Positions 1 to 17,665 of a stretch of 18,641 nt of DNA are shown here, one piece after another (position 1 is the stretch's first letter; the number at the start of each line of letters is the position of its first letter). The DNA lies in assembly GCA_044356215.1 (NCBI GenBank), contig JBIKWQ010000067.1, positions 1 to 18,641 on the forward strand. The letters run 5' to 3'. The position numbers were made by a program, and so were the translations under genes. The notes under the pieces were generated by a model. The model was not told the DNA's origin, did no database searches, and worked only from the letters and a program-made list of their open reading frames with translations. The DNA is from Bdellovibrionota bacterium. GTDB lineage: Bacteria > Bdellovibrionota_C > UBA2361 > OMII01.

Positions 1-27
1 TCCAAAGAGTCTGGGCAAGCGGGTTAG
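1..27 (+). CDS. Possible 3' end of a cassette ORF entering from the left (SKESGQAG*)
   Basis: Frame 1 is open from base 1 to TAG at 25-27, which overlaps the GTTCAAC box of the attC-like site, as is typical for cassette genes. Only 9 codons are visible. Confidence 0.3.
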   Translation, partial: SKESGQAG

Positions 28-123
28 TTCAACGTGCTGTTGAGCCGCAGATGGTGGAGTCTTTCCATCCGCTCGCTCACGCCGCAGTCGCCACCACCTG
101 CGGCTCAACACTATTCATTATCC
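27..123 (+). other. Degenerate attC-like recombination site (site 1)
   Basis: R'' GTTCAAC (27-33). 20-bp stem TGTTGAGCCGCAGATGGTGG (38-57) / CCACCACCTGCGGCTCAACA (91-110) with 1 mismatch. R' reads ATTATCC (117-123) instead of GTT..., and no clear extrahelical base is present. Confidence 0.55.
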
Positions 124-636
124 GTCTCTATCTTTGAAAAATCCGATTCGCCGCTTTGATGATTCGATTGGCTTTTCAAGTTCGGAGATTAGAAAGCGAA
201 TTTCCTGTAATTCATTTTCGTGATGCGCGAAACCTTGTGCCAAACGTCGCTCTACATCATAAAGACGCCTTTTTAAGTCTGCGTGCTCTGACATAATCGC
301 TCGCATTTTTATGAAAGTTCTTACCAGTAAAATGCTGGCGTCTATGGCAATCTGACTATTCAAGACAGTAGCGGCCATCACAGCTCCGTGTTCGGTAAAT
401 GCATAGGGGTTAGTTCTTCGCATGTTCCATTTTGCGGTCGCAATTTGCGACCGCAAAATGCTAAACTCCTGATCTTCCAATTGAAACATGAAGTCTTCTG
501 GGAACCTTCTTCTATTCCGTTTTACTTGCTCATTAAGTCGCTTTGGCGAGACCCCATATAGAAGCGCGAGATCAAGATCTAATATAACGCGGAATCCGCG
601 AAGGTTAACAATGACGGTGTCCAAGTCTAGCGGCAT
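118..636 (-). CDS. ORF6N domain DNA-binding protein (phage antirepressor-like) with C-terminal coiled coil
   Basis: Motifs RGxRVILDxDLAxLYGV..KRLNEQVKRNxxRFPEDFMFQL, PYAFTEHGAVMAATVLNS and terminal RRIGF. GGAGG (648-644) lies 7 nt before the ATG at 636, favouring it over the track start at 672. Confidence 0.9.
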   Translation of the reverse strand: MPLDLDTVIVNLRGFRVILDLDLALLYGVSPKRLNEQVKRNRRRFPEDFMFQLEDQEFSILRSQIATAKWNMRRTNPYAFTEHGAVMAATVLNSQIAIDASILLVRTFIKMRAIMSEHADLKRRLYDVERRLAQGFAHHENELQEIRFLISELEKPIESSKRRIGFFKDRDG

Positions 637-794
637 AGGCAATCCTCCACTATATAAATCGAAATTTTTCAAAAAAGTTGCCTGTGGCGGCTCCGAGAGT
701 ACCTCTGCGTACCCCTGCGGATAAAAATACGATCCCTAATATATCGATGAATTTAAATAAAAGTTGCCTACCTCAGCTGTGGTGATAGATTGAT

Positions 795-850
795 GGATAA
801 CAAATCAGCCCACTAGAGCCTGAACGCTCTAGTGGCTTTGAACGTTCTCT
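795..850 (+). other. attC-like recombination site (site 2), near-canonical, 56 bp
   Basis: GGATAAC-AAATC-AGCC[C]ACTAGAGC-CTGAAC-GCTCTAGTGGCT-TTGAAC-GTTCTCT. It shows AAC/GTT cores, 5- and 6-nt spacers, and a perfect 12-bp stem with one extrahelical base (G on the bottom strand). Confidence 0.8.
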
Positions 851-920
851 CAGCAACCACACTTAGAGGTCAAATGAAAACAATAGCAATCTGTGGCTCC
901 ATGGATTTTTTCGCGGAAAT
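846..920 (+). repeat. 75-bp exact direct repeat, copy 1 (leader, RBS and first ~15 codons of the NDT-like gene)
   Basis: TCTCTCAGCAACC...TTCGCGGAAAT is identical to 2001-2075. Confidence 0.97.
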
Positions 921-1302
921 GGTCTCGCTTCAAGACACTCTTGAGGCCGCGGGTTTGCAGGTAAGTATTCCTGCCGCAGAGGAGGTAAAGGTTGACTACT
1001 CCGCTACCTGCGACAAGGATCTAGCGAGGATAAAGAAGCAATTTATCGACGAGCACCTCGCGAAGATACGGGTAGCTGACGCGGTTCTCCTCGCTAACTT
1101 CACCAAAAGAGGAATTGTTGGGTACATCGGCGCAAACACCTTGATGGAAGCGGCTTTCGGATATGCTCTTGGAAAGCCTATCTTTGTACTCAACTCATTA
1201 GGGGATCAGCCGTGTCGCCCAGAAGTACTTGGAATGCAGCCCACTTTTTTACACGGCGAGCTAAAAGATTTAATAACTAGTCAGCTAATTATGCGGCAAT
1301 AA
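874..1302 (+). CDS. Hypothetical protein, nucleoside 2-deoxyribosyltransferase-like (Rossmannoid) fold
   Basis: GAGGT (866-870) precedes ATG 874. Motifs IAICGSM, HLxKIxxADAVLLAN and GYIGANTLMExxFGYALGKPIFVLN, with a Glu at the usual NDT nucleophile position. Confidence 0.65.
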   Translation: MKTIAICGSMDFFAEMVSLQDTLEAAGLQVSIPAAEEVKVDYSATCDKDLARIKKQFIDEHLAKIRVADAVLLANFTKRGIVGYIGANTLMEAAFGYALGKPIFVLNSLGDQPCRPEVLGMQPTFLHGELKDLITSQLIMRQ

Positions 1303-1354
1303 CTACTCACCAAAAAACAGCCTCCCGCGACTAGGGAGTGGCAAGAAAGAAAAG
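1300..1354. repeat. Short dispersed hairpin repeat, copy 1 (terminator-like on the - strand)
   Basis: TAACTACTCACCA-AAAAAC..CTCCC-GCGACTA-GGGAG-TG plus an A-rich tail; similar to 11221-11270. Confidence 0.65.
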
Positions 1355-1358
1355 GAAC

Positions 1359-1387
1359 TTGCATTTTGTATATGACTATAATATACT
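1359..1387 (+). promoter_or_regulatory. Sigma70-type promoter with operator palindrome for brnTA
   Basis: TTGCAT-17 nt-TATACT, then 6 nt to ATG 1394. Inverted repeat GTATAT-N7-ATATAC (1368-1386) overlaps it. Confidence 0.7.
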
Positions 1388-1393
1388 AGCGAT

Positions 1394-1690
1394 ATGGACT
1401 CAAAGAAATTGCTGGGTGTCACCGGGTTTCAATGGGACCAAGGGAACCTTGAGAAGAACTGGCTAAAGCACGGCGTCTCGCCCCTTGAGTGCGAGCAGGT
1501 GTTTTTCAATCAGCCTCTCGTGGTGGCGCCCGATCTGAAGCACTCTCAGGATGAGGAGAGGTTTTTCGCTTTGGGTCGCACTGATACTGACCGTTGCCTA
1601 TTTGTGGTGTTTACAGTTCGGCGAAGGAAGCTGCGTGTCATATCGGCGCGGGACATGAGCAGGAAGGAGCGAGTGATTTATGGCGCGTAA
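1394..1690 (+). CDS. brnT: BrnT-family toxin (type II TA ribonuclease)
   Basis: FQWDxGNxEKNxxKHGVS, HSxxEERFFALG and LRVISARDMSRKER motifs; overlaps the downstream antitoxin. Confidence 0.92.
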   Translation: MDSKKLLGVTGFQWDQGNLEKNWLKHGVSPLECEQVFFNQPLVVAPDLKHSQDEERFFALGRTDTDRCLFVVFTVRRRKLRVISARDMSRKERVIYGA

Positions 1691-1991
1691 GTTGATACCG
1701 ACGTTTACATCAGAAGCCGAAGAACAAGACTTTTGGCAGAAGCACGACTCCACAGATTACATAGATTGGTCAAAGGGTAGGATTGGAGTATTCCCGGAGC
1801 TCAAGTCCTCGACTAAGACCATCTCATTGCGATTACCGGAATCTCTCTTGGCCGCGATAAAAACGCTAGCCAATAAAAAGGACGTCCCATATCAATCGCT
1901 CATGAAGGTTTTTCTTTCGGAGAAATTACAGGACGAGCTGGATAGCTCAGATAACAAAAGAATTCAGAGCTCCACCCGGAGTGGGCGCTGA
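1680..1991 (+). CDS. brnA: BrnA/CopG-like antitoxin (C-terminal ribbon-helix-helix)
   Basis: IPxFxSEAEExxFWxxHDSTDY and TKTISLRLP...KxLAxKKDVPYQSL motifs. Its stop codon falls inside attC-like site 3. Confidence 0.88.
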   Translation: MARKLIPTFTSEAEEQDFWQKHDSTDYIDWSKGRIGVFPELKSSTKTISLRLPESLLAAIKTLANKKDVPYQSLMKVFLSEKLQDELDSSDNKRIQSSTRSGR

Positions 1992-2005
1992 TTGCCGCGC
2001 TCTCT
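1949..2005 (+). other. attC-like recombination site (site 3) with mutated R' (GCT)
   Basis: AGATAAC-AAAAG-AAT[T]CAGAGC[T]CCAC-CCGGA-GTGGGCGCTGATT-GCCGC-GCTCTCT. Stem with two unpaired bases and one mismatch. Confidence 0.7.
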
Positions 2006-2075
2006 CAGCAACCACACTTAGAGGTCAAATGAAAACAATAGCAATCTGTGGCTCCATGGATTTTTTCGCGGAAAT
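2001..2075 (+). repeat. 75-bp exact direct repeat, copy 2 (truncated second copy of the NDT-like cassette)
   Basis: Identical to 846-920; identity stops abruptly after GGAAAT. Confidence 0.97.
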
Positions 2076-2093
2076 AGCCTTGCCCACCTAGCT

Positions 2094-2390
2094 CTATGCC
2101 TGACGCCTGACTTCGCGTTCGATAGTCGCGCCGTTATTGATTCGCGCTGAGTCTAGATCGTAGTCCATTTGGATTCCCAACCAGAAGTCAGCTGAGTTGC
2201 CAAAATAGGCAGACAGCCGCAAAGCGGTGTCAGCGGATATCCCGCGCTTTCCTAGAACAATTTCGTTAATCCGCCGAGCGGGGACGCCTAGGGCCAGCGC
2301 AAGGCGATTCTGGCTGAGGCCCATAGGTTTAAGAAACTCCTCGCTGAGAACTTCTCCCGGGTGAATAGGCAACAATTTAACTTTTCTCAT
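2094..2390 (-). CDS. higA: HigA-family antitoxin (HTH)
   Basis: HPGEVLxEEFLKP..SQNRLA..RRINEIV.GKRGISADTALRL...FWLGIQ motif; downstream of higB. Confidence 0.95.
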   Translation of the reverse strand: MRKVKLLPIHPGEVLSEEFLKPMGLSQNRLALALGVPARRINEIVLGKRGISADTALRLSAYFGNSADFWLGIQMDYDLDSARINNGATIEREVRRQA

Positions 2391-2402
2391 AAAGTATACT
2401 CA

Positions 2403-2684
2403 CTAATGGTAATCAACTACCTCTACCATATACGCATGCCCATCATGCCATTCAAAACAGATCCTCCATTGATCGTTAACCCTAATACTCCACTGTCCAC
2501 TTCTACTCCCCGACAACTTTTCTAGCCGATTAGCTGGAGGAATTCTCAAATCGGAGATGTTGGTTGAGCGATGTAACATCCTCAGCTTCCTCAAAGCGAC
2601 TTGCTGGATACTGGGAGGAAACTTCTTTGAGATCTCTAGGCTAAAGATTCTCTCAGTTTCTTTACATTTAAAACTTTTAATCAC
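2403..2684 (-). CDS. higB: HigB-family toxin (RelE/ParE superfamily, plasmid-maintenance killer type)
   Basis: VIKSFKCKET...DLRIPPANRLEKL.G...GQWSIRVNDQWRICF..VEVVDYH. The real start is probably GTG 2684 (93 aa), not 2864. Confidence 0.93.
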   Translation of the reverse strand: MIKSFKCKETERIFSLEISKKFPPSIQQVALRKLRMLHRSTNISDLRIPPANRLEKLSGSRSGQWSIRVNDQWRICFEWHDGHAYMVEVVDYH

Positions 2685-2690
2685 TCTACT

Positions 2691-2727
2691 ATGGTATACC
2701 GCTTTGCGTTTAACGGCAAGCGTTAAA
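2691..2727 (-). promoter_or_regulatory. higBA promoter and operator
   Basis: TTGCCG (2719-2714)-17 nt-TACCAT (2696-2691), then 6 nt to GTG. Palindrome TTTAACG-GCAAG-CGTTAAA (2709-2727) covers the -35. Confidence 0.75.
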
Positions 2728-2842
2728 TTTAATCCAAACTGGGCAAAACGATTCGGTCGAAAAGATGTCGCGCTTGAGCTAATTCTAGGCACAGCCCATG
2801 GTGCGGCACTTTTCACCAAAATGTTCTTTCGGTTGCAACACT

Positions 2843-2873
2843 TAGGGCAGCGAGACGAAATCACGCTGCCCTA
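2843..2873. terminator. GC-rich hairpin downstream of the membrane-protein gene, possible terminator
   Basis: TAGGGCAGCG / CGCTGCCCTA 10-bp perfect stem; no strong U-tract. Confidence 0.4.
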
Positions 2874-2899
2874 GATTCCCCAAGCATGTTTTTTAACGC

Positions 2900-5059
2900 T
2901 CACCCCTCTCCGGCATCGCAAATAACCTCTGCCTCGCACCTCGAGAACTTAAGCTCGATAATATGAGGCGACGCTCTAGATAGTGTAGCCGGGGGTATTA
3001 AACTAATCGTTTGCTTATTCTTCACGGTGTATTCGCTCTTCTGTAGAGCTACCCGATCCCCTTCGCCACTCTTTCCAAGAGAGCTCGCTGTAACGAGACA
3101 CTCTTGGTTATTGATAGGTGAGATCTCGATCCGCGCGGTGGTATCGCGAGGCGCAAAAAATAACGGTAGTGATCCATCCTTTGAGATAATTTTTGGCCTG
3201 GTTAGATTTAATAAATAGCTGCCATCATCGAAGCGCTTAGTAGAGCTAAAAGCAGATGAGGTGTCGTTTATTCTTCTAGTAAAATCATCCTCGTTCCATT
3301 CGGTGTAAAAGCTCGGTACTACAACTATTTTATTAAGCCCGCATATACGCGCCGCGTAATCAAGGGAGACCTGATCGGGGAAGCCTTGGGTTGCGCGTGG
3401 TAGTTGCGTTAAGATCTTTGAGCGCTGTCCGCTATAGCCGTTTACAAGCTTTAAATCTTTAGCATTCAGTGACGATTCCCAGTTAGCGTAGCGACTATTT
3501 AAAATAGCTACGCCAGACCAGCTATCGCTCTTTGTTGAGGTTGTGCTTGGCGCAAATGGTAGAACTAACGTAGCTCCGCTACCAAGCGCCTCCGAGCCTG
3601 ACTTTAGCGCCATAAAAGCTTGCGCTGGTGGCGGCGGGGTATCAAGTGGAATAGTAGTCACTAAATTATCGACGGCACCTATAATAAGTAGCGCTACTGA
3701 GGCGCCAAAATAAGATCTATTCGCTGAACGTTTCGATACAAATCTCTGAACTCCAAAAGCCGCCGCTATTAGTGAGGCTAATATCACAACGCTGCCGTAT
3801 CGACCGACCGCGCGTACCGCTGCGAGACCAGGCACACGGTGATAGAGTAACCCTAGAGGTGAGAATACCGGTTCATTCTTACTTGGATTGCCACCTGGAC
3901 CAAAAGAGAAGATCCAAAAAAAAGTGGCGATAATCACTAGGCAAGCAAGCGCTGAACGGTCTCGTGCTGTGTATGCCAAAGTTCCGATTAAAACCACCCA
4001 AGCGCTTACACAAAGGATCTCCTCAGAGCGTGAACCTTGGTCGACGATACTAGAGGCAACAAGAAGCGATCCGGCGGCGAGAGACACAGGGATAGCCAAC
4101 ACGGGTGATGTTCGCCAACACGAACTTAATATAGTTAGAATGGCCAACATGGATATAGCGTACCCAGGTGATAGATATGCCTCGCTGTGAGAGAGCCGCG
4201 ATGTAAATGAGAAGAGATCGTGTAGGGGTGTGAAAGAGATGTAAGATAGGCCGTTAGCGGCGAAGTACGCTGCTTCATGAAAGCCCCGCTCACCAAAGAG
4301 CTGCTGGACAGAGAGAAAGTAGGGGAGGGCATAAAATATAGGTAGGGCACCGCATACTGCGAAGAGGATCGTGCGTAGAGCTCTGCGTGATGAGAATCGC
4401 CCGTAGATCAGTTGATGAAACCAGATGATAGCGAGCCCTATTACTGAGAATATCGCGTAGTAGACGCTAGTGTAGAAAGCTCCTGAGACTAAGAGTCCAG
4501 CGGCAAACCAGCTGCGCGAGGTAGCGCGCTCATTTATTTTAGGAGAGAGAACCCGCCACCAAGCAAGCGGGATCCAGAAGAAGAACAAAAGCTGTGGGTG
4601 GCCGAGATTACCTAAGATATAACTTGAGTTAGCGAAGAGGATTCCAACTACAGAGGCTAAAGCTGGCGCTAAGCCAACTCGGCGCGCCAGGAGCGAAACT
4701 GCCACGGCGTTACTGCTAAAAGCCAACAAGACGATAGTGTTGTAGCTCTGAGTTAGGGTGAGCCCAACTTTAGTGAATAAGAGAGCCGCCGCGGGTGGTA
4801 GAAAAAACGGATCGCTCCAAGCCCTAGTTATCGGGTATGGATAGAGAGTATTGGTTTCGAAGGAGAGTGCATTTAGAGGATCGTTAAAGAAGCTCTGTGT
4901 CAGCCACACATAGAGCCCCGCATCTCCAGCCGCACCACCGATAAAGTGGGTGGAGAAGTGCTCTATGACGCTTGGGTGGAGGGCAATAAATAGAGCTACC
5001 GCGAGTATGCCAGTAAGTAGTGAGCGCAGGCGCTCTGATGAGCTTTCATTCGGGGCCAT
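2900..5059 (-). CDS. Polytopic membrane protein, probable GT-C-fold glycosyltransferase (YfhO-like)
   Basis: More than 10 hydrophobic segments, GD in the first loop, LYPYPxTxAWSD, GHPQL, VPGLxxVRAVGRY and LVNGYSG, plus a soluble C-terminal domain. 12 nt downstream of uvrA on the same strand. Confidence 0.6.
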   Translation of the reverse strand: MAPNESSSERLRSLLTGILAVALFIALHPSVIEHFSTHFIGGAAGDAGLYVWLTQSFFNDPLNALSFETNTLYPYPITRAWSDPFFLPPAAALLFTKVGLTLTQSYNTIVLLAFSSNAVAVSLLARRVGLAPALASVVGILFANSSYILGNLGHPQLLFFFWIPLAWWRVLSPKINERATSRSWFAAGLLVSGAFYTSVYYAIFSVIGLAIIWFHQLIYGRFSSRRALRTILFAVCGALPIFYALPYFLSVQQLFGERGFHEAAYFAANGLSYISFTPLHDLFSFTSRLSHSEAYLSPGYAISMLAILTILSSCWRTSPVLAIPVSLAAGSLLVASSIVDQGSRSEEILCVSAWVVLIGTLAYTARDRSALACLVIIATFFWIFSFGPGGNPSKNEPVFSPLGLLYHRVPGLAAVRAVGRYGSVVILASLIAAAFGVQRFVSKRSANRSYFGASVALLIIGAVDNLVTTIPLDTPPPPAQAFMALKSGSEALGSGATLVLPFAPSTTSTKSDSWSGVAILNSRYANWESSLNAKDLKLVNGYSGQRSKILTQLPRATQGFPDQVSLDYAARICGLNKIVVVPSFYTEWNEDDFTRRINDTSSAFSSTKRFDDGSYLLNLTRPKIISKDGSLPLFFAPRDTTARIEISPINNQECLVTASSLGKSGEGDRVALQKSEYTVKNKQTISLIPPATLSRASPHIIELKFSRCEAEVICDAGEG

Positions 5060-5071
5060 ATAAGATTGATA

Positions 5072-8000
5072 TTAAATCTCACAGGGGGTTATGGCTAGCG
5101 GGGCGGTTAATATATTCGTGACTCTTCGCATCCCAGCATGCAGCTCCACCCTCTCTCTTAACGCCGCGCCCCATGGGGTCTTTTTCTCGATTAGCTTAGC
5201 AGGAGCTCCAGAGTAGATTATCTCTCCTCCAGCGACTCCGGGTCCGGGCCCTAGTTCGATCACCCAATCTGATTGAGTTATCGTGTCTGCGTCGTGCTCG
5301 ATAACGATGACTGAGTTGCCAGCGGCCACTAGTCCGTGTAGGGCCTTCAATAATAGCGCCACATCAGCTCTGTGTAGCCCAGTTGTTGGTTCATCTAAGA
5401 CGTAAAGTGTGTGACCACGACGAGCCATGTGAAGCTCAGACGCTAACTTTAGGCGCTGGCTCTCACCACCTGAAAGGGTTGATGAGTGTTGCCCTAAAGT
5501 GAGGTATCCAAGCCCAAGATCGCAGGCGATCGAGCAGATCTGATGAATAGACCTGTGGTTTATAAAGATAACCCGCGCCTCCTCAAAGGTTAGTTTTAAA
5601 ACTTGGCTGATTGATAGATCGCGGTAACGTATCGAGTCGGCCTCAAAGGTAAAGCGCGTTCCAGAGCAGGTCTCACACGGAACTTTTGCCTCCGCTAAAA
5701 AGCTCATCTCTAAGGTTAGCTCGCCGTTTCCTTTGCACGCTGGGCATCTGCCTTTACCGGTGTTGTGAGAGAAGAAGCTTGGACCCCAGCCGCGAGACTT
5801 CGCCTCGAGAGTTGAGGCGAATATCGCTCTTACATCATCCCAGATCCCTAAGTAGCTAGCTGGTGTGGAGCGTGAGGTCTTGCCGATCGGTTGTTGGTCA
5901 ACAACGAGGAGTCGATCTACCTTAATATCAGAGCTGATCTGCCCGGTTTGGCTCGTTACCTTTGCACCGTCATCGATCCCTCCAGAGAGTGATTCAACAA
6001 CGATACCGTTTACCAGCGAGCTCTTACCAGCGCCTGATACGCCAACAACTGTAACTAGATTCTTAAGCGGTATCTCGCACGAGAGATTTTTTAAATTATT
6101 CTTAGTGGCGTTCTTCACCGATAGAAGCGGAGACTTGGTCTTCACCGCCTCTTTAAAGATTAACGGCTCTGAGAGCGCTCTCCCTGTAGCCGATCTCGAG
6201 TCCGCTTTAATCTGAGAGACGGTTCCCTGAAAAACGATCTCTCCACCGTGCGTCCCCGCGCCTGGGCCAACATCGATCACCTGATCTGAGGCTAATATGT
6301 TATCGATCTCGTGTTCGATCTGGATCACTGTATTTCCGCGATCGCGTAATCCGGTCAGGGTGCCGAGAAGCCGCCTGTTATCAGCCGGATGTAGACCAGC
6401 GCTCGGCTCGTCAAAGATATAGGTTACGCCGGTAAGAGGAGAGCCTATCGCCGTAGCTAGTCTTAGCCGCTGCAGCTCTCCATTTGAGAGCGACGCGCAC
6501 TCCCTTTTAAGCTCTAGGTGATCAAGCCCCAAGGCGCTAAGTGTTTTTAATTTACCTTCTAGCTCGCGCAGAATCGGGCGGGCGATCTCAACCGCGCTCT
6601 TATTAGTTGCCAGAGGCTCTAATTGTTTTAAGAGATTGCGTGGTGTGCTCGACGCCATCTGGTCGATACTTAGATCAAATAATTTGATATTGCGGCCGAT
6701 CTCGTGAAGACGGCTACCGCCGCACTCTGTGCACTGTTTGTCGTTCTTTAACACCCCGTACCCATCGCACTTTGGGCACCTGCCACGCTTAGAGTTAAAG
6801 GAGAGATCTTCAGGGTCTGGTTTAAAGAATCCGCGCTGACATATCTGACACGTTCGTTGTGAGCTAAATACTCGGTCTGTGCCTCCATCATGAACGATCA
6901 CCGTTCCGCCCCCGATTGCTAAAGCCTGCTTGACCCCATCGACTAAGAGATCCACAGAGAGGTTCTTAACATTGCAACGAGCCGTCACGAATTCAATCGT
7001 GTGAGCTTTAGTTTTAGCCAAGCCCTCATCTACAAAGCGGCCAGGCGCGGAAAAGATGCCATCAACACGGGTCTCTGAGATCTCAGTTTCAAGAGCTCGT
7101 TGAAAAACAGATCGGTGATTGCCCTTCTTCTGTTTAATCACCGGAGCGAGTAGGCGTATTGAGCCCTTGTAATTCTCCTTAATAAAGGTGGCTATCTGCT
7201 CGGCAGAGAGCGGCGAAACAGATTGGTCTGGATGATCAGGGCAGTATTGAACACCAACCTTGGCATAGAGTAGGCGCAGAAAGTTGTAGACCTCACTCAT
7301 CGTCGCTACTGTAGAGAGCGCGGATGGTTGAAATGTGTGTTGATAAACGCAGATAGTCGGCTGTATTCCGCGGATATCATCGATAGCCGGCTTCTTTAAC
7401 TCTTTAATAAACTGCCGCGCGTAGGGTGAGAGGCAATCGAGGTATCTACGTTGTCCCTCGGCATAGATTATATCTTTGGCGATAGTGGATTTACCTGAGC
7501 CTGAGACACCTGTCACAGTAATCAGCTCGCCTAGCGGAATATCGAGCGAGATATCTTTTAGGTTGTGTTCTTTGGCGCCGCGGATCTGAATATGGGTTAG
7601 CTCCGCCGCCGGCTCAGCTTTGGCGTTGCCTCTCTTAGCGCGTTTAGTTTTAGCTGACCGCTCTTCTTTTAAAGCGCCGACGCTAAGCGCTAGGAATTTA
7701 GCTGTTAGGCTCTCTGGGTTGGTGCCGCTTATAGCGCGCTTTACAAGATCGTTAGGTGTTCCCTGTTCTACCAGCCTTCCGCCCTTGTCACCACCTTGGG
7801 GTCCGAGATCGATCACCCAATCAGCCGCGGCTATCAGATTTAAATTGTGCTCAACGCACAGAATTGAATGACCCTGATCGCGCAGGAAATAAAATAGCTC
7901 TATTAATCGCTCAACATCGCGCATATGTAAGCCGGTTGTCGGCTCATCAAAGAGAAATAGAGACACGCTCTTACTCCCATCAACTATGTGCGGCACAAGC

Positions 8001-10495
8001 TTTAATCTCTGCGCCTCACCACCCGATAGCTCACTTAGAGGGTGTCCTAAAGTTATATGCCCCAAACCCAGCCGCGAGAGAACCTGGCATACGGAGGCGA
8101 TCTGCTTTTCGTTGGCGAAGATCTCGGAGCACCTATCAACGGTAGTTGATAATATATCGTGCGCGTTAAGATCCTTGTAGCGAACCTCTAATACAGGGGC
8201 TTGAAAACGTGCCCCTAAGCAGCTCTCGCACTCGATAAATACATCGCTTAGAAACTGCATATCCTCGCGGATAAATCCAGCGCCCTCACAATTTGGGCAT
8301 CGTCCGGCGGCGACGTTAAATGAGAAAGACGAGCGGCTTAATCCGCGCGAGATCGCGTCCTCTGTATTCGCCAAGAGATCCCTGATGCGATCCCAGATCT
8401 TTGTGTAGGTGGCGATATTGGCTCTTGGTGTCTTTGATAGAGGTGATTGATCAACTAAGAGCACCTGCGAGACAGCTTCAAAACCACTTACCTTAGCGTC
8501 TAAAAGATTCTCTCCTGGAATTACCCCACGGTGGATCTCAAAAGCCGCTTGAATTACCTCGGTGATTAAAGAGCTCTTGCCACTTCCAGAGACTCCTGTC
8601 AGAGCGACAAAGGCATTTAAGGGGATATCGAGATCGAGCGATTTTAAATTACGGTTGCGCGCTTGGCGGATCGATAATTTATCTTTAAATGACGGAGGAG
8701 TTGATACTGGGGCCTTAGGTTTTACTCCAAGACCCTGCCACTCTGAACGGGGACCGAAGAAAGTCACATCACCGCCGCGCTCGCCAGCTAATGGGCCAAG
8801 CTCAAGTATGTAGTCGGCGTTACTTAGACACTCTGGGTCGTGTTCGACAACTGTCAGCGAGTTGCCCCTAGCGGTGAGATCCTTAAGGGCGCCTATTAAT
8901 GCTTGCGTGTCCCTAGCGTGTAAACCAACCGAGGGCTCGTCTAGCACAAAGTGTGTTGAGATTAAGTTGCTACCGAGTGCTGAAACGAGATTAACCCGCT
9001 GAGTCTCTCCTCCGGAGAGGGTCCTAGATTGTCTGTCGAGAGTCAGGTAGGGGAGTCCTAGCGTCACCAGATATTCAAGGCGATTTAAAACGCTCTTAAA
9101 CACATCGTCTAGCTGCCTTGGCAGTTCGCCAGATTCCTTTAGACTGTCACGCAGCTCTTTAAACCAAGGAAGGAGCTGCTCTAACTCAACTGTGGCCACA
9201 TCAGCTATCGATAGCCCGCGCACTCGATATGCCAACGCGTCTGATTTAAAGCGAGCTCCGCGGCACTCTGGGCAATCGACCTGAGATCTGTAGCGCGCTA
9301 AAAAGACGCGCACGTGCATCTTGTACTTCTTGCGCTCAAGCCATTTAAACCACGGGTTAATCCCAACAAACGCCCGTGATTTGTGGTTAAATATAGTTTC
9401 CTTGGCCTCGGCGGATAAGCTAGCCCACGGTTTGTTTTTAGGGATCCCTTGGAGGTCGCAGAATTTTAAGAGCTGCCTATGCTCGTCTGACGCGGCGTTA
9501 CCTTTCCAGCACTCAACCGCGTACTCCTCAATACTCTTGCTGTGATCGGGGACGCATCGGTTAGGATCGATTACAAGAACTTTACCGAAGCCGTTACATT
9601 CAGGGCACGCGCCGATCGGGTGGTTATAAGAGAATAGAGCCGGTCTTGGTCTCGCTACCGACACAGCGCCATCGCCGCACTGAAAATCTCGCGAGAAGCG
9701 ATAGCTTTCAAAAGTTCGATCTACCTGGCGTGTCTCGTTACTGACGGTGATGCGGGCGAGGGGACGATACGAGCGGTTACGTTGCTCAACTATTACCACA
9801 ACCCCATCGCCGACTGAGAAGCACTGCTCAATCGATTCACGAACCTGCTTGGGTGAGAAAGCGCGAGCACGAAATCGATCGATCAGTACCGTCACATTTT
9901 GGATTCGCTTAGGAGGGGGCGCGTCCTCAAAAAGCTCGACAGATCCAGTTTTTGGATCGATATAGCGTGAGTAGCCTAAGATCTTAAGCCTCTCGATCTG
10001 GTCCTTTGAGTTCTTGCTCTCAACACCAATTAGGTAGGTGGCGTCCTCTTTAAGGAGCGCCAGCTTCTCAAGGTGGCTAGTGAGTGATGAAGGATCCCAG
10101 CGAACGAGATCCATGCCGCAGTATGGGCAGACAGGTTTAGCGAGATTACTCCAGATGATCTTCAGGAGATCGTTGATATCGGTCATCGACCCAACGGTAG
10201 AGCGTGAGTTTAATATCCTGGTTCTCTGTTGGATCGCTATCGCTGGTCTAACGTTCTCTATTAGATCGACCTTGGGGCGCTTAACTTTATCGAAGAACTG
10301 TCTGGTGTATGGAGAGAAGGTCTCAATGTAGCGGCGCTGCCCCTCAGCGTAGATAGTGTCGAAGGCGAGAGATGACTTGCCGGATCCTGAGAGACCGGTG
10401 ATCCCGACGAAGGCGTCATGCGGAAGGGTAATATCGAAACCCTTTAAGTTGTTCTCTTGAGCGTTGATTATACGCAACGAGTTTTTGTTTGACAT
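5072..10495 (-). CDS. uvrA: Excinuclease ABC subunit A, double-length (tandem UvrA-UvrA, 1807 aa)
   Basis: Four Walker A motifs (GLSGSGKS, GVSGSGKS x2, GVSGAGKS), four LSGGE/LSNGE signatures with DEP Walker B, two YAEGQRRY motifs and multiple CxxC pairs. Confidence 0.96.
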   Translation of the reverse strand: MSNKNSLRIINAQENNLKGFDITLPHDAFVGITGLSGSGKSSLAFDTIYAEGQRRYIETFSPYTRQFFDKVKRPKVDLIENVRPAIAIQQRTRILNSRSTVGSMTDINDLLKIIWSNLAKPVCPYCGMDLVRWDPSSLTSHLEKLALLKEDATYLIGVESKNSKDQIERLKILGYSRYIDPKTGSVELFEDAPPPKRIQNVTVLIDRFRARAFSPKQVRESIEQCFSVGDGVVVIVEQRNRSYRPLARITVSNETRQVDRTFESYRFSRDFQCGDGAVSVARPRPALFSYNHPIGACPECNGFGKVLVIDPNRCVPDHSKSIEEYAVECWKGNAASDEHRQLLKFCDLQGIPKNKPWASLSAEAKETIFNHKSRAFVGINPWFKWLERKKYKMHVRVFLARYRSQVDCPECRGARFKSDALAYRVRGLSIADVATVELEQLLPWFKELRDSLKESGELPRQLDDVFKSVLNRLEYLVTLGLPYLTLDRQSRTLSGGETQRVNLVSALGSNLISTHFVLDEPSVGLHARDTQALIGALKDLTARGNSLTVVEHDPECLSNADYILELGPLAGERGGDVTFFGPRSEWQGLGVKPKAPVSTPPSFKDKLSIRQARNRNLKSLDLDIPLNAFVALTGVSGSGKSSLITEVIQAAFEIHRGVIPGENLLDAKVSGFEAVSQVLLVDQSPLSKTPRANIATYTKIWDRIRDLLANTEDAISRGLSRSSFSFNVAAGRCPNCEGAGFIREDMQFLSDVFIECESCLGARFQAPVLEVRYKDLNAHDILSTTVDRCSEIFANEKQIASVCQVLSRLGLGHITLGHPLSELSGGEAQRLKLVPHIVDGSKSVSLFLFDEPTTGLHMRDVERLIELFYFLRDQGHSILCVEHNLNLIAAADWVIDLGPQGGDKGGRLVEQGTPNDLVKRAISGTNPESLTAKFLALSVGALKEERSAKTKRAKRGNAKAEPAAELTHIQIRGAKEHNLKDISLDIPLGELITVTGVSGSGKSTIAKDIIYAEGQRRYLDCLSPYARQFIKELKKPAIDDIRGIQPTICVYQHTFQPSALSTVATMSEVYNFLRLLYAKVGVQYCPDHPDQSVSPLSAEQIATFIKENYKGSIRLLAPVIKQKKGNHRSVFQRALETEISETRVDGIFSAPGRFVDEGLAKTKAHTIEFVTARCNVKNLSVDLLVDGVKQALAIGGGTVIVHDGGTDRVFSSQRTCQICQRGFFKPDPEDLSFNSKRGRCPKCDGYGVLKNDKQCTECGGSRLHEIGRNIKLFDLSIDQMASSTPRNLLKQLEPLATNKSAVEIARPILRELEGKLKTLSALGLDHLELKRECASLSNGELQRLRLATAIGSPLTGVTYIFDEPSAGLHPADNRRLLGTLTGLRDRGNTVIQIEHEIDNILASDQVIDVGPGAGTHGGEIVFQGTVSQIKADSRSATGRALSEPLIFKEAVKTKSPLLSVKNATKNNLKNLSCEIPLKNLVTVVGVSGAGKSSLVNGIVVESLSGGIDDGAKVTSQTGQISSDIKVDRLLVVDQQPIGKTSRSTPASYLGIWDDVRAIFASTLEAKSRGWGPSFFSHNTGKGRCPACKGNGELTLEMSFLAEAKVPCETCSGTRFTFEADSIRYRDLSISQVLKLTFEEARVIFINHRSIHQICSIACDLGLGYLTLGQHSSTLSGGESQRLKLASELHMARRGHTLYVLDEPTTGLHRADVALLLKALHGLVAAGNSVIVIEHDADTITQSDWVIELGPGPGVAGGEIIYSGAPAKLIEKKTPWGAALRERVELHAGMRRVTNILTAPLAITPCEI

Positions 10496-10548: not shown

Positions 10549-10854
10549 TCATGCCGCTTTCCTTGAGCAGGGGCGCACATCTTTTTCAATTTTCGGCAGA
10601 ATCGTTTTCTGAGCAATTTTCAAATCAAAACGACTTTGAAGGTTTAGCCAAAATTCCGGAGTAGTTTTGAAATAAATAGCGAGACGAAGCGCCGTGTCAG
10701 TAGTGATTGCCCGCTTGCCGTTAATGATGTCATTGACTCTTCCCACCGGGACATCTAGATCCCTAGCGAGCTTGTTTTGAGATATCTCTAGAGGCTTCAT
10801 GAATTCTTCAAAGAGAATTTCCCCAGGAGTAATAGCATCTAGCTTGCGTACCAT
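10549..10854 (-). CDS. higA: HigA-family antitoxin (HTH)
   Basis: PGEILFEEFMKPL..SQNKLA..GKRAITTDTALRL..TTPEFWLNLQ motif. Confidence 0.95.
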   Translation of the reverse strand: MVRKLDAITPGEILFEEFMKPLEISQNKLARDLDVPVGRVNDIINGKRAITTDTALRLAIYFKTTPEFWLNLQSRFDLKIAQKTILPKIEKDVRPCSRKAA

Positions 10855-10866
10855 TTTAAACCGTCT

Positions 10867-11145
10867 CTAATGATAATCTATTATCTCAACATCCCAGGCT
10901 GCATTATCAGCCCACCTAAAACATATTCTGAATTGGTTGTTAATTCTAATGCTGTACTGGCCTATCCGATTTCCTCTAAGAGATTCAAGACGATTGCCAG
11001 GAGGACTTCGAAGGTCTTCCAACCTTGTCGCTGCCTCAAGCATTTCTAGCTTTCGTCTCGCGATGCGCTCTATATTTCTGAATCGCTTGGAACTAAGGTC
11101 TTTCGCAAGCCTATCAGTTTCACGGCATTTAAAGCTCTTAATCAT
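10867..11145 (-). CDS. higB: HigB-family toxin
   Basis: MIKSFKCRET...DLRSPPGNRLESL.G...GQYSIRINNQFRICF..VEIIDYH. Start is probably ATG 11145; a TTGACA lies at 11175-11170. Confidence 0.93.
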   Translation of the reverse strand: MIKSFKCRETDRLAKDLSSKRFRNIERIARRKLEMLEAATRLEDLRSPPGNRLESLRGNRIGQYSIRINNQFRICFRWADNAAWDVEIIDYH

Positions 11146-11220
11146 TATAGTATCTCGCCAAAGGTATCCTGTCAAACAGTATAAAAAACACTGCGTCCTT
11201 GCAAGGGTTTAGTTTGGTCT

Positions 11221-11270
11221 TAACTACTCACCAGAAAACGACACCCCCGACTAGGGGGTGAAAGAAAAAG
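11221..11270. repeat. Short dispersed hairpin repeat, copy 2
   Basis: TAACTACTCACCAGAAAAC..CACCCCC-GACTA-GGGGGTG plus an A-rich tail; similar to 1300-1354. Confidence 0.65.
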
Positions 11271-11309
11271 AAGCGTCAAAACAGCCCATTTATAGCGGCA
11301 TAGGATAAT

Positions 11310-12547: not shown

Positions 12548-12913
12548 CTATGGTTTAGCTAGTGGCACCAACCGCGACTTAAGAATCTTGCGATCTCGTG
12601 TTAGCAACGGAATCTTATGTACAATACTTGTCGCGGCGATTAGCTCATCAGCGGGGTCGCTACTAAAATCAAGTTTGGTGCTCGTTGTTGAAATAGCTAG
12701 GGTAATCGGAAGGATTTGTATTTGCCCGATTAATCTGGAGAATTCAATCGATTCAAGATCCAGCGTGAGTCGATCCAAAGAGACAAGTTTCGCTAATTTC
12801 CATAGAACAATAGGAGATATTGCCCATTCATGCTGACGGAGCAATTTGCGCTCACTCTTACTCAGGTCATCGCAGAGCGAATGAATCAGAATGTGAGTGT
12901 CAAGATTGAGCAT
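12548..12913 (-). CDS. vapC: PIN-domain (VapC-like) toxin
   Basis: LDTH, ISPIVLW, DPADxLIAAT and LLTRD motifs; overlaps the upstream antitoxin. Confidence 0.9.
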   Translation of the reverse strand: MLNLDTHILIHSLCDDLSKSERKLLRQHEWAISPIVLWKLAKLVSLDRLTLDLESIEFSRLIGQIQILPITLAISTTSTKLDFSSDPADELIAATSIVHKIPLLTRDRKILKSRLVPLAKP

Positions 12914-13118
12914 TCCAACGAACTCCCGTTGAAAAAATATCTCCTTTAATTTTAATCTTACCCTTCATCGATCCTATTAAATTAGCTGACTGTTCTTGAA
13001 TGGGAATTAATTTAGCAACGGGCCTGCCATGTTTGGTAATCACTATTCCTTCAGGCTCTAGCGAGTCTAGGATGGAGAGCGACTGCTCTTTGAATTTACT
13101 CGCATTTATCTTCTTCAT
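12900..13118 (-). CDS. Phd/YefM-family antitoxin
   Basis: INASKFKxxxLxILD...IVITKHGRPVAKLIP motif. Start at 13118 (or 13124). Confidence 0.9.
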   Translation of the reverse strand: MKKINASKFKEQSLSILDSLEPEGIVITKHGRPVAKLIPIQEQSANLIGSMKGKIKIKGDIFSTGVRWNAQS

Positions 13119-13124
13119 GTCCAT

Positions 13125-13964: not shown

Positions 13965-16082
13965 ATGGATTTGGGGCGGCAGGTCAGAACAATTCTGGCT
14001 AACTCGATGAGACACTCGGTCTTAGCGGCCATCGTGTGCGTCACGATCATTACGCGAATATCAAATCTCTCCGCTCAGATCCCAACGACGATCTCAGTCT
14101 GCGCTAAGTGCGCCACAGCGACTAACTGCGATGTGAGGTGCTTAAACGCGGACGTCTCTTGCTATGGATGCTCTACCCTTAGAGCAGCTTACCCAAGCTG
14201 TTTTACCTGCCAAAAGGTAATGGAGGCAGCAGCCGTCATGGGCTACCGCTGCGACTCATCAAGCTCATCAAGCTCATCAAGCTCATCAAGCTCATCAAGC
14301 TCATCAAGCTCATCATCAGGTTCCAGCGCCAGCTCTAGTATGGGAAGCTCATCTTCACTTAGCACTTCTAGCTCCTCGTCTAATTCGGGCGGCTCGAACT
14401 CATCTGCTTCGAGTAGTATACAGAGCTCAACTAGCGATTCGTCTAACGCATCATCACTTAACTCGTCCGCTAATTCATCAAGCAACTCGACCGTGGGCTA
14501 CTCATCGAGCTCGTCGATTGCCAGCAGTAGCGCTTCATCCGGCGGCTCATCAACAAGCGGCAACAGCTCTAGCACCAGCAGTAGTAGTAGTAGTAGCACT
14601 AGCAGCTCATCTAGTAGCAGCAGTAGCAGTAGCACTAGTAGCTCTAGCTCGTCATCTAGCTCGGAAAGCTCCAGCTCAGGAGGGTCCTCAAGCAGCTCAT
14701 CTAACAACTCTAGCTCTAGTAATTCAAGCAGTGGAGCTAGTAGCTCCGTTATCGATTGCGGACCAGGCGGCATCGCTATCCCTCCAGGCGCGCAAATCAT
14801 TGACTGCGGAGCAGCGGCTCCAGGATGCGTATGGGAACTAACTCACGATTGCTGCAAACAGGTCTGTACTCCAAGTAGCTCAAGCAGCTCAAGCAACACC
14901 TCTAGCTCAAGCAGCACCTCAAGCTCCGCCAGCTCTAATAGCACTAGCAGCTCTACAAGCTCAGATAGCAGCGCTTCAAGTTCAGGTAACTCAAGTAGCT
15001 CTAGCAATAGCAGTGCAACCTCAAGCAGCTCAAGTACAACCAGTTCGTCGGGAAGTAGCTCTAGCTCTGCTGATAGCTCTAGTAGTTCATCTAGTTCTGG
15101 GCCATGTTCTTGCTGCCCAGGAGCTTCAAATTTATGTCAAGGACCTCAGTACGATAGATTATGTCCTATGATAATACAGCTATGTTCTAGCGCTTCATCT
15201 AGTAGCAGCAGTAGTGGCTCATCCAATTCTAGTGCTAGTAGCACTTCCTCGAGCAGCGGCTCGAGCTCCCCACCTACAGATCCGAGACCAGGAACATGTC
15301 CGACTGGAGACGCGCTACAGGATCAATGTCCAAATCTATGTCTGCCTTGCGTAACCGCTTCAGTTACCTCCCCAGATACGAGCTGTGGCGGTGTCTTCCC
15401 AGGAGCGTGTTTTACCTATAGAGCAAGCTGTGTGCAGAATACACCGGAAACCCACGTAATCCAGTGCATAGTAACCGGAATGACTGCAAATCCTGCTGAT
15501 AACTGTACTGCGGAGCCTTGCTCCAATACGTGTTTAGGTCTCGTAGAATGCCCCAATAACGGCCAAAATTCGGATGATGGTATATCTTGTTGCCTACATG
15601 GCTGCTCTACTCGTCCAACCCTCCGCCGCGCATGTGCTTGCGCTCCTACAGCCACGCAATGTGGAGATATTTGCTGCTCGAACGGCTGCGACCAAAATGA
15701 TCCGACTAGGTGTGCATGTAATTCCGGACAAACCCAGTGCGGGACATCCTGCTGCGATAACGGCTGCGATCAAAGCGATCCGACGTTGTGCGCGCCGCCT
15801 CCACCTCCGCCACCACCTAGCTGCATAAGCGCGGGAGATGATTGCACTAGCGGAGGAACTTGCTGCTCTGGAACCACTTGCACTAATGGTACGTGCCAAC
15901 CCTCCTGCGCTCCTGGGGAGACTAGGTGTGGCATTGATTGCTGCCCTAATGGCTGTAATCACACCAATACAAGTTGCGCTCTTACCCCCGTCGAAGAGGA
16001 TTGTGTAGCCGAGGGTCAGCCGTGCGGTCCAACTAGCATGTGTTGCTGGGGAGTTTCTTGCATCGACGGTCAATGCTCTTAA
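13965..16082 (+). CDS. Secreted Ser-rich / Cys-rich repeat protein
   Basis: Signal-peptide-like segment, three poly-Ser tracts separating Cys-rich modules, three CGxxCCxNGC repeats and two C-C-CC-C-C modules. Start codon uncertain (13965 or 14007). Confidence 0.85.
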   Translation: MDLGRQVRTILANSMRHSVLAAIVCVTIITRISNLSAQIPTTISVCAKCATATNCDVRCLNADVSCYGCSTLRAAYPSCFTCQKVMEAAAVMGYRCDSSSSSSSSSSSSSSSSSSSSSGSSASSSMGSSSSLSTSSSSSNSGGSNSSASSSIQSSTSDSSNASSLNSSANSSSNSTVGYSSSSSIASSSASSGGSSTSGNSSSTSSSSSSSTSSSSSSSSSSSTSSSSSSSSSESSSSGGSSSSSSNNSSSSNSSSGASSSVIDCGPGGIAIPPGAQIIDCGAAAPGCVWELTHDCCKQVCTPSSSSSSSNTSSSSSTSSSASSNSTSSSTSSDSSASSSGNSSSSSNSSATSSSSSTTSSSGSSSSSADSSSSSSSSGPCSCCPGASNLCQGPQYDRLCPMIIQLCSSASSSSSSSGSSNSSASSTSSSSGSSSPPTDPRPGTCPTGDALQDQCPNLCLPCVTASVTSPDTSCGGVFPGACFTYRASCVQNTPETHVIQCIVTGMTANPADNCTAEPCSNTCLGLVECPNNGQNSDDGISCCLHGCSTRPTLRRACACAPTATQCGDICCSNGCDQNDPTRCACNSGQTQCGTSCCDNGCDQSDPTLCAPPPPPPPPSCISAGDDCTSGGTCCSGTTCTNGTCQPSCAPGETRCGIDCCPNGCNHTNTSCALTPVEEDCVAEGQPCGPTSMCCWGVSCIDGQCS
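14255..14315 (+). repeat. 9-bp tandem repeat (TCATCAAGC) x6 plus a partial unit, encoding poly-Ser
   Basis: Six perfect in-frame units at 14256-14309. Confidence 0.95.
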
Positions 16083-16117: not shown

Positions 16118-16938
16118 CTAAGGAAGCGGGGTAACATCCCTCCCCAACACCCACCTCTTTCCAAACTCAGAGGCCAGTGTATATCCAAACAGAATTACTC
16201 CCACTATCGCCAGCGTTGATAAACTTGGGGCAGCGAAACCAAGAGCTTCTCCCAGCCCCGAAAAAGGCAGCAAAACCGTTATCGCCGCCGCGAGACAGCT
16301 CATTACTGCTAGCCACTTCGCTGGCCTACTTCTAAACAACGAACGCCGCGTTCGAACCACTAACAGAACACAGATCTCAGATATCACCGACTCAATAAAC
16401 CAAACCGTTCTAAACGCTGGCGCTGGCAACCCGATGATTAACAAGGTACCGAAAGTTAAGTAATCAAACTCAGCAGCACTATATCAGCGGCTTCCTTAGT
16501 GACATCTGCCGCCGAATCAACCGGGATCCCGACATCTCCAGCGCGCAAAGCGGCCGCATCGTTGATACCATCACCTAAATAACCAACACCAAGATTTGAA
16601 CGCTTAAGTAAGATCTCAACCGCGCTTTGCGCGCGAAGCTCTTGCCAGTAACCCAGGGCGCTACTCGCAATTAGGATACCGACTATAACAGCTCCATCGA
16701 AGCGCTCGCCAACCACCGCGGAAATCAGCGCCGCCACCTCTAGCAGGATACTGATTGGGCTCTTAAATTGAGAAGCTAATAGTCGCAGCCGCTGGTAACG
16801 CGAGCTTGGGCTAAGGGAGTTAGAGCCATAGCGCTCTAACGCTGCGGATGCTTGCTGTGAGCTTAGTCCGGATAGGGAGGAGGTTAAGCTTGAGAAGAGC
16901 TGGTTGTGTTCGTGGCGGCTTTCAAGCTCATTTTGCAT
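16118..16938 (-). pseudogene. mgtA: Mg2+-transporting P-type ATPase (MgtA-like) remnant with two large internal deletions
   Basis: N-terminal GLS..A..L.RYG.N and QFKSP/M1-M2 are fused directly to VGYLGDGINDAAAL..KEAADIVLL. A frameshifted FDYLTFG...FRTVWFIES..LLVVRTRR C terminus follows. TGES and DKTGT are absent. Confidence 0.85.
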
Positions 16939-17308: not shown

Positions 17309-17665
17309 ATGCGCCGATTTACCAGTAATGAACTCTACATGATCCGAAACTTGATCCCGATTCGCCAAGTAATTGAGGATATTCTCGCTATACCTAGCAA
17401 GGATATAGAAGGAGTTTTTCGTTTTGTGTGTCCCTGCTGCTATGAGAGCAACACAGCGATTAACCCAAAGACCAATCTTTGTCGGTGCTTTCGATGTGAA
17501 AGGAATTTTAATACCATCGATATCGTTATGACCGACAGAAAATTATCATTTGTAGACGCAGTCGCGTGCTTAAGGAGTCGTTATCAAACTATGCTGCAAC
17601 CAGCAGCTGCGGCGCAATCTGAGCCGGACTTTTCCATTTATGCAGCTTCATCGGGCTATTGTTAA
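17309..17665 (+). CDS. Standalone CHC2-like (DnaG N-terminal type) zinc-finger protein
   Basis: IRxxIPIxxVI..CPCC..INPKTNLCRCFRCERNFNTIDIVM....SFVDAV pattern, with GAGGGGG RBS. The last 77 nt overlap the transposase antisense. Confidence 0.8.
   Translation: MRRFTSNELYMIRNLIPIRQVIEDILAIPSKDIEGVFRFVCPCCYESNTAINPKTNLCRCFRCERNFNTIDIVMTDRKLSFVDAVACLRSRYQTMLQPAAAAQSEPDFSIYAASSGYC

Follow-up and report, generated by a model that had tools for sequence, protein, structure and literature searches.

Arrays of integron cassettes that lie apart from an integrase gene have been described as integrase-less attC clusters (CALIN) and sedentary chromosomal arrays, with two or more attC sites of one orientation within 4 kb (Cury et al. 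2016, PMC4889954); such arrays are well known in genomes that carry intI (PMC4889954), and brnT-brnA cassettes have been named (PMC8876359). Insertion sequences (IS) of the IS91 family (IS91, IS801, IS1294) have no terminal repeats, make no target duplication, carry oriIS palindromes and insert beside a tetranucleotide (PMC13181058). The DNA analysed, hereafter the window, is the whole of contig C49 (18,641 bp) from the draft genome of a Bdellovibrionota bacterium (3.24 Mb in 131 contigs). Its left-hand region is very likely the distal end of an integrase-less cassette array, in which bases 1–117 are the end of an IS91-family element lying at a cassette crossover, where its own transposase is likely to have placed it. 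The cassette array is of an ordinary, known kind, while the IS looks like an under-described, attC-homing variant of the IS91 family. A caret marks the crossover or junction bond throughout, as in G^TT.

The first-pass annotation, made from the letters alone, had described three attC-like sites ending at 2075, and every motif that it quoted is in place (GTTCAAC at 27, TTATCCGTC at 118, GATGGATAAC at 792, GTTCTCTCAGC at 844, GCTCAGATAAC at 1945 and GCTCTCTCAGC at 1999). However, its site 1, read as an attC that had lost the G of its R′ box, is an IS end. Bases 1–117 of the plus strand equal the transposase-distal, oriIS-side end of a complete copy (L033) that was found by a pattern scan. This copy spans 2,394 bp and carries genes for a tyrosine recombinase and a Y2 transposase. 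The transposase reaches 411.7 bits on NF033538 (cut-off 125) and also matches PF04986 and PF14319. The recombinase matches PF00589; on TIGR02249, the integron-integrase model, it scores 202.6 bits, which is short of the cut-off of 265 and is split over two stretches. The 117 bases of the window correspond to the sequence after the transposase stop, and the remainder of the element lies off the contig. Bases 1–121 are identical to the starts of contigs C72 and C36, with divergence directly after A^TTAT. The element starts with TTGAAC and ends in A, and the A^TTAT junction is found at every copy; the ‘ATT’ of site 1 is therefore the last base of the element plus the first two of the cassette.

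DNA nearly identical to the window is present in freshwater metagenome runs, of which X1 is possibly the source of the genome and hence not independent. In the run contigs the 1–117 stretch lies on a unitig of 2,291–2,401 bp (2,398 bp where its depth is 63 against 12.6). The depth of this unitig was about 5-fold elevated in X1 (63 vs 12.6) and X2 (30.8 vs 6.3), and 3- to 7-fold in X5 (21 vs 4.9), X6 (37 vs 5–10) and X9 (17 vs 4.5–6.5). The element is present at about five copies, its insertion sites vary between lake runs, and the window copy is inserted in forward orientation at an R′ crossover.

The hairpin at 38–110, called site 1 above, is the subterminal palindrome of the IS end, an inverted repeat with an attC-like layout. 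Its folding z-score of −4.8 makes it a strong hairpin. As an attC it fails: the L-box stem pairs perfectly over 12 bp and lacks an extrahelical base, the spacers are 5 and 7 nt (the longer on the right), the junction is A^TT, and neither of two attC covariance models (R1 and R2, described below) gave a hit to 27–123 at E ≤ 5 in the window. The position of the hairpin is that of an IS91 palindrome, downstream of tnpA and 33 bp plus a motif past the transposase stop. In five related ends the stem is conserved and the loop variable, with 1 of 18 pairs compensatory. The motif is a 19-nt sequence at 15–33 (plus strand) that recurs inverted at the other end of the element, and a related pair occurs in distant integrase-plus-IS91 elements; it is likely to be a binding site for the recombinase or the transposase. 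A decayed attC at site 1 is refuted by the multicopy unitig, the complete copy and an exact insertion into a core gene (see below). Assignment of bases 1–117 to a group II intron or IS1111 was dropped once the complete element had been found, and a minus-strand attC belonging to the ORF6N gene that follows was rejected because C115, L063 and L065 hold a reversed ORF6N gene after a forward attC. A short remnant of an IS91 right end lies at C5:~1440–1500 (L169), just past an attI-like site, and is followed by A^TTAT. In run X7, a loose end before window position 116 carries a different hairpin ahead of cassette A, ending in AAAC before ATT, which is possibly another IS91 end. Run contigs showed no IS-free join of cassette A to C9, C13 or C55.

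The target of the element was mapped from its flanks. One copy interrupts a core gene that is present in 33 of 34 relatives. At this site, the one examined, the alignment of the C109 and C72 flanks to intact orthologues (L110–L114) is colinear and shows no indel at the junction, which gives no target duplication and a cut at G^TT within a 2-bp ambiguity. In the near clade, the G of an attC immediately precedes the element in nine of 12 distinct left flanks (C9, C13, L022, L033, L046, L075, L076, L077 and L079; eight were scored by heuristic or model and L033 by eye). The remaining flanks are the core gene, a position 11 bp beyond an attC (C55) and the end of a group II intron (L011/L013), while L020 was omitted because no IS gene was found there. 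The enrichment at attC crossovers is large, since the genome holds 5,723 GTTAT sites but only 16 attC hits. On the right, TTAT follows the element in all 11 distinct near-clade flanks among the matches listed, and in genome G021 a copy has attC-type junctions on both sides. The more distant IS91 elements L084, L085 and L088 likewise end before cassette-like starts, whereas other distant elements with the same gene pair do not. A scan of the genome collection with the IS transposase added one distant locus. In a 19-row transposase tree (of 26 loci, 7 were dropped, six for want of a hit and one for being under 200 aa) the attC-flanked elements cluster, requiring two changes, but with long branches and a p-AU of 0.205 a single clade is neither shown nor rejected. 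In L011 and L013, the left end of a related IS91 copy is directly adjoined by what we take, from its motif, to be the 3′ end of a group II intron, so that both elements may have inserted at one site.

The inserting enzyme is probably the Y2 transposase. It would join the hairpin end of the element to a target cut at 5′-ATAA^C on the bottom strand, the same bond that IntI cleaves. Sites of the attC type would be favoured because they carry the ATAA^C sequence and extrude as single-stranded hairpins, and the tyrosine recombinase of the element may act as a helper on the paired 19-nt motifs. The transposase is preferred over an integron integrase because IntI1 recombination drops by 1e3–1e4 unless both partners share the first triplet base (PMC2811028), whereas the IS end has a conserved A and lacks the extrahelical base. 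That triplet base is G in 97 of 98 attC sites of the genus. The alternative that the IS is a true gene cassette, with site 1 as its own attC and with the host IntI excising and inserting it, draws on the start of the element, TTGAAC, to which the site 1 R″ box GTTCAAC is an exact complement, on the array orientation of the IS at R′ crossovers, and on the core-gene insertion at G^TTATAG, which resembles an IntI secondary site. The extrahelical base sets strand choice, and its loss does not always abolish recombination (PMC5027507). The IS as cassette is nevertheless improbable: there is no model hit for site 1 or for the related ends L027, L033, L048, L081, L088, L089 and L134, the missing extrahelical base goes together with a right spacer of 7 nt, and the conserved A mismatches the G of its targets (PMC2811028).

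The tyrosine recombinase of the element, rather than its transposase, is an unlikely agent of insertion at attC. Its 203 bits on TIGR02249 and the paired motif near both ends are consistent with such a role, but the score is under the cut-off and falls in two stretches, and distant elements that share this gene pair and motif are flanked by DNA other than attC. In L084 and L085, moreover, A^TTAT ends precede cassette-like starts although the locus gave no recombinase hit.

If the transposase is the inserting enzyme, it is possible, and we put it forward tentatively, that this HUH enzyme reads the AA^C bond on the folded bottom strands of attC and attI. The IS would then be an active third class of integron parasite, inserting as a perfect pseudo-cassette that leaves the upstream attC usable, with an end disguised as attC that IntI could hardly remove, and flanking cassettes might be mobilised by one-ended rolling-circle transposition.

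The array to the right of the IS was delimited with the two covariance models. R1 was built from 20 attC sites (4 of class 1 and 16 from the genome, relatives and metagenome loci) and R2 from 13, 10 of them class 1; the training sites were not paralogues of those in the window, and filters were off in the searches. R1 gave four hits in the window, the top three being sites 2, 4 and 3, all on the plus strand, and R2 gave three, among them 795–850 and 2743–2829. The 16 attC hits in the genome are those at E ≤ 1. A strict heuristic scan of the genome returned 32 candidates, many of them probably chance and scored without a shuffle control, which were not used as evidence, and an Rfam search of window 1–3000 found no relevant family. 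The hit at 795–850 was found with both models. This is site 2 (795–850, plus strand, crossover G844^TT), with 22.5 bits and E 0.002 on R1, 31.1 bits and E 8.7e-6 on R2, and a bottom-strand folding z of −4.9. Its layout is canonical: R″ AAC, a 5-nt spacer, L″ with an extrahelical base, stem, L′, a 5–6-nt spacer and R′ GTT. The site looks functional, and loose ends at 844–846 are present in contigs from the lake runs. No joints from cassette excision or integration were seen in contigs of 8 runs.

Site 3 (1949–2005, plus strand, crossover at G1999) is an attC as proposed, but a damaged one. Its R′ box is G^CT, R1 gives only 9.5 bits (E 2.7), R2 gave no hit in the window search, and the strong bottom-strand fold found for sites 1 and 2 was not seen here (z −0.7). 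It thus has neither an intact R′ GTT nor a significant model match. Its homologues in relatives (L060 and L061) do qualify as attC, scoring 28 and 21 bits, and site 3 is taken as degraded for this reason; the G^CT mismatch would impair it. A fourth site at 2743–2829 (plus strand, crossover G2823^TT) had been overlooked, and the array, rather than stopping at 2075, continues to about 2850. Site 4 is the last before chromosomal genes restart at 2900. It scores 14.4 bits (E 0.18) on R1 and 15.2 bits (E 0.08) on R2 with a folding z of −0.7; the 10 and 14 pairs of the two models are all formed despite these E values, and its homologues L062 and L063 reach 26.6 and 24.2 bits.

The first-pass annotation had concluded from the ATT and GCT cores that three attC sites of one array included two decayed ones and that the array was being frozen. 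Site 3 does set G^CT against an R″ of AAC, and in a related mutant IntI1 recombination fell from 2.2e-3 to 6e-6 when the cleavage site was non-complementary (PMC2811028). The R″ of site 4 and the start of cassette C also depart from those of relatives. However, the ATT belongs to the invariant end of a multicopy IS, which has the identical sequence on three genome contigs and in relatives, so that the proposal rests on site 3; site 2 is intact, as is intI, and IS insertion sites differ between lake runs. A frozen array is therefore highly improbable.

Apart from the attC sites, the cassettes were recognised from homology breaks at 844 and 1999; with the model hits, these establish an integron cassette array without an adjacent intI, as had been proposed. 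The end-to-end complementarity between cassette start and downstream site, offered in its support, is there (9/11 for cassette B, 8/10 for cassette A) but is weakly diagnostic. Among attC sites of the genus, a match of at least 6/7 is seen for 4043 of 8230 unrelated pairs (49%), and one of at least 9/11 in 529 of 8230 (6.4%) against 25 of 62 adjacent pairs (40%). It counts as modest evidence for cassettes.

The first 2.9 kb codes for a reversed ORF6N gene, a nucleoside 2-deoxyribosyltransferase-like (NDT-like) gene, brnT with a CopG-type antitoxin, and reversed higBA; two toxin–antitoxin (TA) modules thus lie in cassettes, in agreement with the annotation. Cassette A (118–844, plus strand) has the extent originally given. 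It carries the ORF6N-domain gene at 118–672 on the minus strand (Pfam PF10543). Contig C87 holds DNA paralogous to site 2 whose match ends at 844, and C115 has a site-2 paralogue followed by G^TTATCC and a reversed ORF6N gene of the cassette A type. A perfect 16-bp hairpin lies within the window ORF6N gene at 428–460. The C115 paralogue (4022–5473) is split near the counterpart of this hairpin by an open reading frame, presumably a group II intron reverse transcriptase from the motifs that we recognise in it.

Cassette B (845–1999, plus strand) has the two crossovers proposed for it, but its sequence makes it a chimera of two cassettes joined at a dispersed repeat, because a copy of that repeat with an internal deletion connects the TA module to the NDT-like gene. 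The composite comprises the NDT-like gene (874–1302, plus strand; PF05014 at E 1.6e-4, below the cut-off), the repeat remnant (1274–1355, plus strand), the brnT/antitoxin unit (1394–1991) and attC site 3. The NDT-like gene has 45 homologues, some named in their source as nucleoside 2-deoxyribosyltransferase, and none at E ≤ 1e-15 among 123 other genomes of the phylum; its last codons enter the repeat. The remnant lacks about 55 bp relative to copies on C51, C3, C82, C92 and C83. The repeat is about 170 bp long with inverted ends, like a miniature inverted-repeat transposable element, and it has dozens of partial copies on many contigs, including one at window ~11221–11273. The toxin gene brnT (1394–1690, plus strand) matches PF04365 and the CopG-type antitoxin (1680–1991, plus strand) PF12441. 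A promoter scan listed none before brnT, and a promoter there is suggested by conservation in relatives. Among 60 relatives searched, alignments stop exactly at 1999 in four of the six closest TA hits, all six have an attC, and the next bases differ (TA, TT, TT, TT, TT and CT). In L057 and L061 the module sits in a cassette that starts with G^TTATCTT and has another first gene.

The first 76 bp of cassette B reappear after site 3 as a truncated second copy (2000–2075, plus strand), identical over 75/75 bp after a first-base T>C change. Such a junction would be carried by a circularised B, and B therefore probably acted as one unit. An assembly artefact is unlikely, as the junction at 1999/2000 is bridged by contigs of X1, X3 and X7 and that at 2075 by contigs of X1, X2, X3 and X7, although short-k contigs cannot order the copies. 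A repeat-associated deletion may have fused two cassettes into B, which may then have been duplicated through a circle, the copy being subsequently truncated. Cassette C (2094–2823, plus strand) contains reversed higB (~2403–2693) and higA (2094–2390) and ends in site 4; its relatives in L062 and L063 open with G^TTATGC and close in a site 4 homologue. The homologous genes of relatives are thus bounded at 1999 and at the ends of cassette C, as expected of cassettes. Past site 4, window 2824–2845 contains no gene and matches the cassette B start at 73% over 26 nt; it is likely to be a relic cassette at the array end.

Gene and domain scans confirmed that the window has no integrase. The genome search for intI that had been suggested found a single gene above the TIGR02249 cut-off (436 bits against 265), intact, on C13 (L001, C13:23679–25067), with an N-terminal DUF5710 domain; intI is above the cut-off in 21 of 35 genomes of the genus. 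Since the genome encodes this intact integrase, the cassettes may still be mobilised in trans. The window could continue a complete integron on C13, with nothing but the repeated IS between it and the intI: intI, one cassette and an attC lie on C13, which ends in the left end of the same IS, and draft assemblies are known to split integrons at IS (PMC4889954). Synteny argues otherwise. The DNA after the homologues of the membrane gene at window 2900–5059, the right-hand chromosomal neighbour of the array, maps to C51 and not to C13 in 15 of 18 relatives, 14 of them within the first 3.2 kb of C51 (18 of 19 loci were usable; one ended too soon). C51 itself opens with an attI-like motif, G^TTAT and an addiction-module cassette pointing into the gap. 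A continuation of the C13 integron is accordingly doubtful.

Five attI-like sites were found in the genome, with a shared upstream region, at C5:1557–1582, C51:264–289, C55:58412–58437, C92:43077–43102 and C130:343–368. Each is followed by G^TTA and cassette-like DNA, and none lies beside intI. The motif is identified as attI because of these five copies, its position 250–300 bp upstream of intI in four relatives (G003, G004, G027 and G029) and the absence of any match in controls. On the simplest reading, an array with an orphan attI starts on C51, crosses an unassembled gap and the IS, and reaches into the window. IntI would have stacked the cassettes at an attI that now lacks an adjacent intI, probably C51:264–289.

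Several observations weigh against the proposed distal array with an IS91 end set at its crossover. The IS target differs from the canonical GTTC/CTTG of IS91, the 2-bp TT overlap leaves the cut register ambiguous, and 76 of 97 ordinary cassettes also start with TTAT, against 11 of 11 IS right flanks (p 0.07–0.08). The IS body and the link to C51 fall in an assembly gap, and the left partner of this copy is unassembled; the intI contig C13 also ends in the IS. Sites 3 and 4 are weak when taken alone (E 2.7 and 0.08–0.18, fold z −0.7). R1 and R2 are home-made from 20 and 13 sites, and several attC sites from IS left flanks were in the R1 training set. Finally, the 9/11 match of the B start with site 3 (40% of adjacent vs 6.4% of unrelated pairs) slightly favours a native B.

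The rest of the contig lies outside the array. A second higBA pair (10549–11175) and a PIN/Phd pair (12548–13124) have no attC hit nearby. Window 5072–10495 is a 1,807-aa open reading frame that resembles a doubled UvrA, as judged from its translation, and 13965–16082 encodes a protein of 705 aa, rich in serine and cysteine, that matched nothing in Pfam. Fragments of a P-type cation ATPase and, at the right contig end, an HTH_38-domain transposase, which we take to be IS30-like, lie at 16118–16938 and 17589–18602.

Compared with the CALIN of Cury et al. (PMC4889954), the window array likewise contains TA cassettes and two or more attC sites of the same orientation within 4 kb, and intI is encoded at another place in the genome and not next to the array. 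It differs in that an orphan attI of its own, one of the five that the genome holds, probably stands at its head, and in having a chimeric cassette with a truncated tandem copy. Its CALIN status is provisional because the array lies at a contig end: at least two attC on one strand with no intI within 4 kb holds inside the contig, and the upstream DNA is beyond it.

If the transposase targets attC structure, the HUH and IntI single-strand systems converge on one bond, which would open a way to break arrays up into integrase-less clusters and to move cassettes independently of IntI. The present copy is a good test case, being an intact element of about five copies whose sites vary between lake samples and whose empty site is exactly mapped. 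The IS ends of such elements can also pass for decayed attC, as happened with site 1.

The IS resembles the IS91 family (PMC13181058) in its HUH/Y2 transposase above cut-off, the lack of inverted repeats at its very ends, the lack of target duplication, the subterminal palindrome downstream of the transposase and the fixed orientation at its target. Unlike the family, it has an upstream tyrosine recombinase in place of orf121, a putative target of ATAA^C (G^TTAT) instead of GTTC/CTTG, a strong enrichment at attC crossovers and an end that mimics the attC layout. A literature search, covering main texts and few subscription papers, found passing mentions but no IS91 group defined as homing to the attC crossover, and the text available of PMC7923331 mentions IS91 in general terms only. 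ISShvi3 from a Shewanella integron (PMC9229058) and ISCR28 with attC at its end (PMC12772301) are IS91-like and cassette-like and lie in arrays beside attC. The available text on both gives no exact junction, target rule or mechanism, and they are likened here by description only. ISShvi3 has a recombinase gene. The only established attC specialists that we know of are IS1111-attC elements and group IIC introns, both of which interrupt attC. These are, like the present IS, mobile elements specialised on attC (PMC9229058), but they use other enzymes, a DEDD transposase and a reverse transcriptase respectively. The present IS, by contrast, lies at the R′ crossover, so that the upstream attC stays intact.

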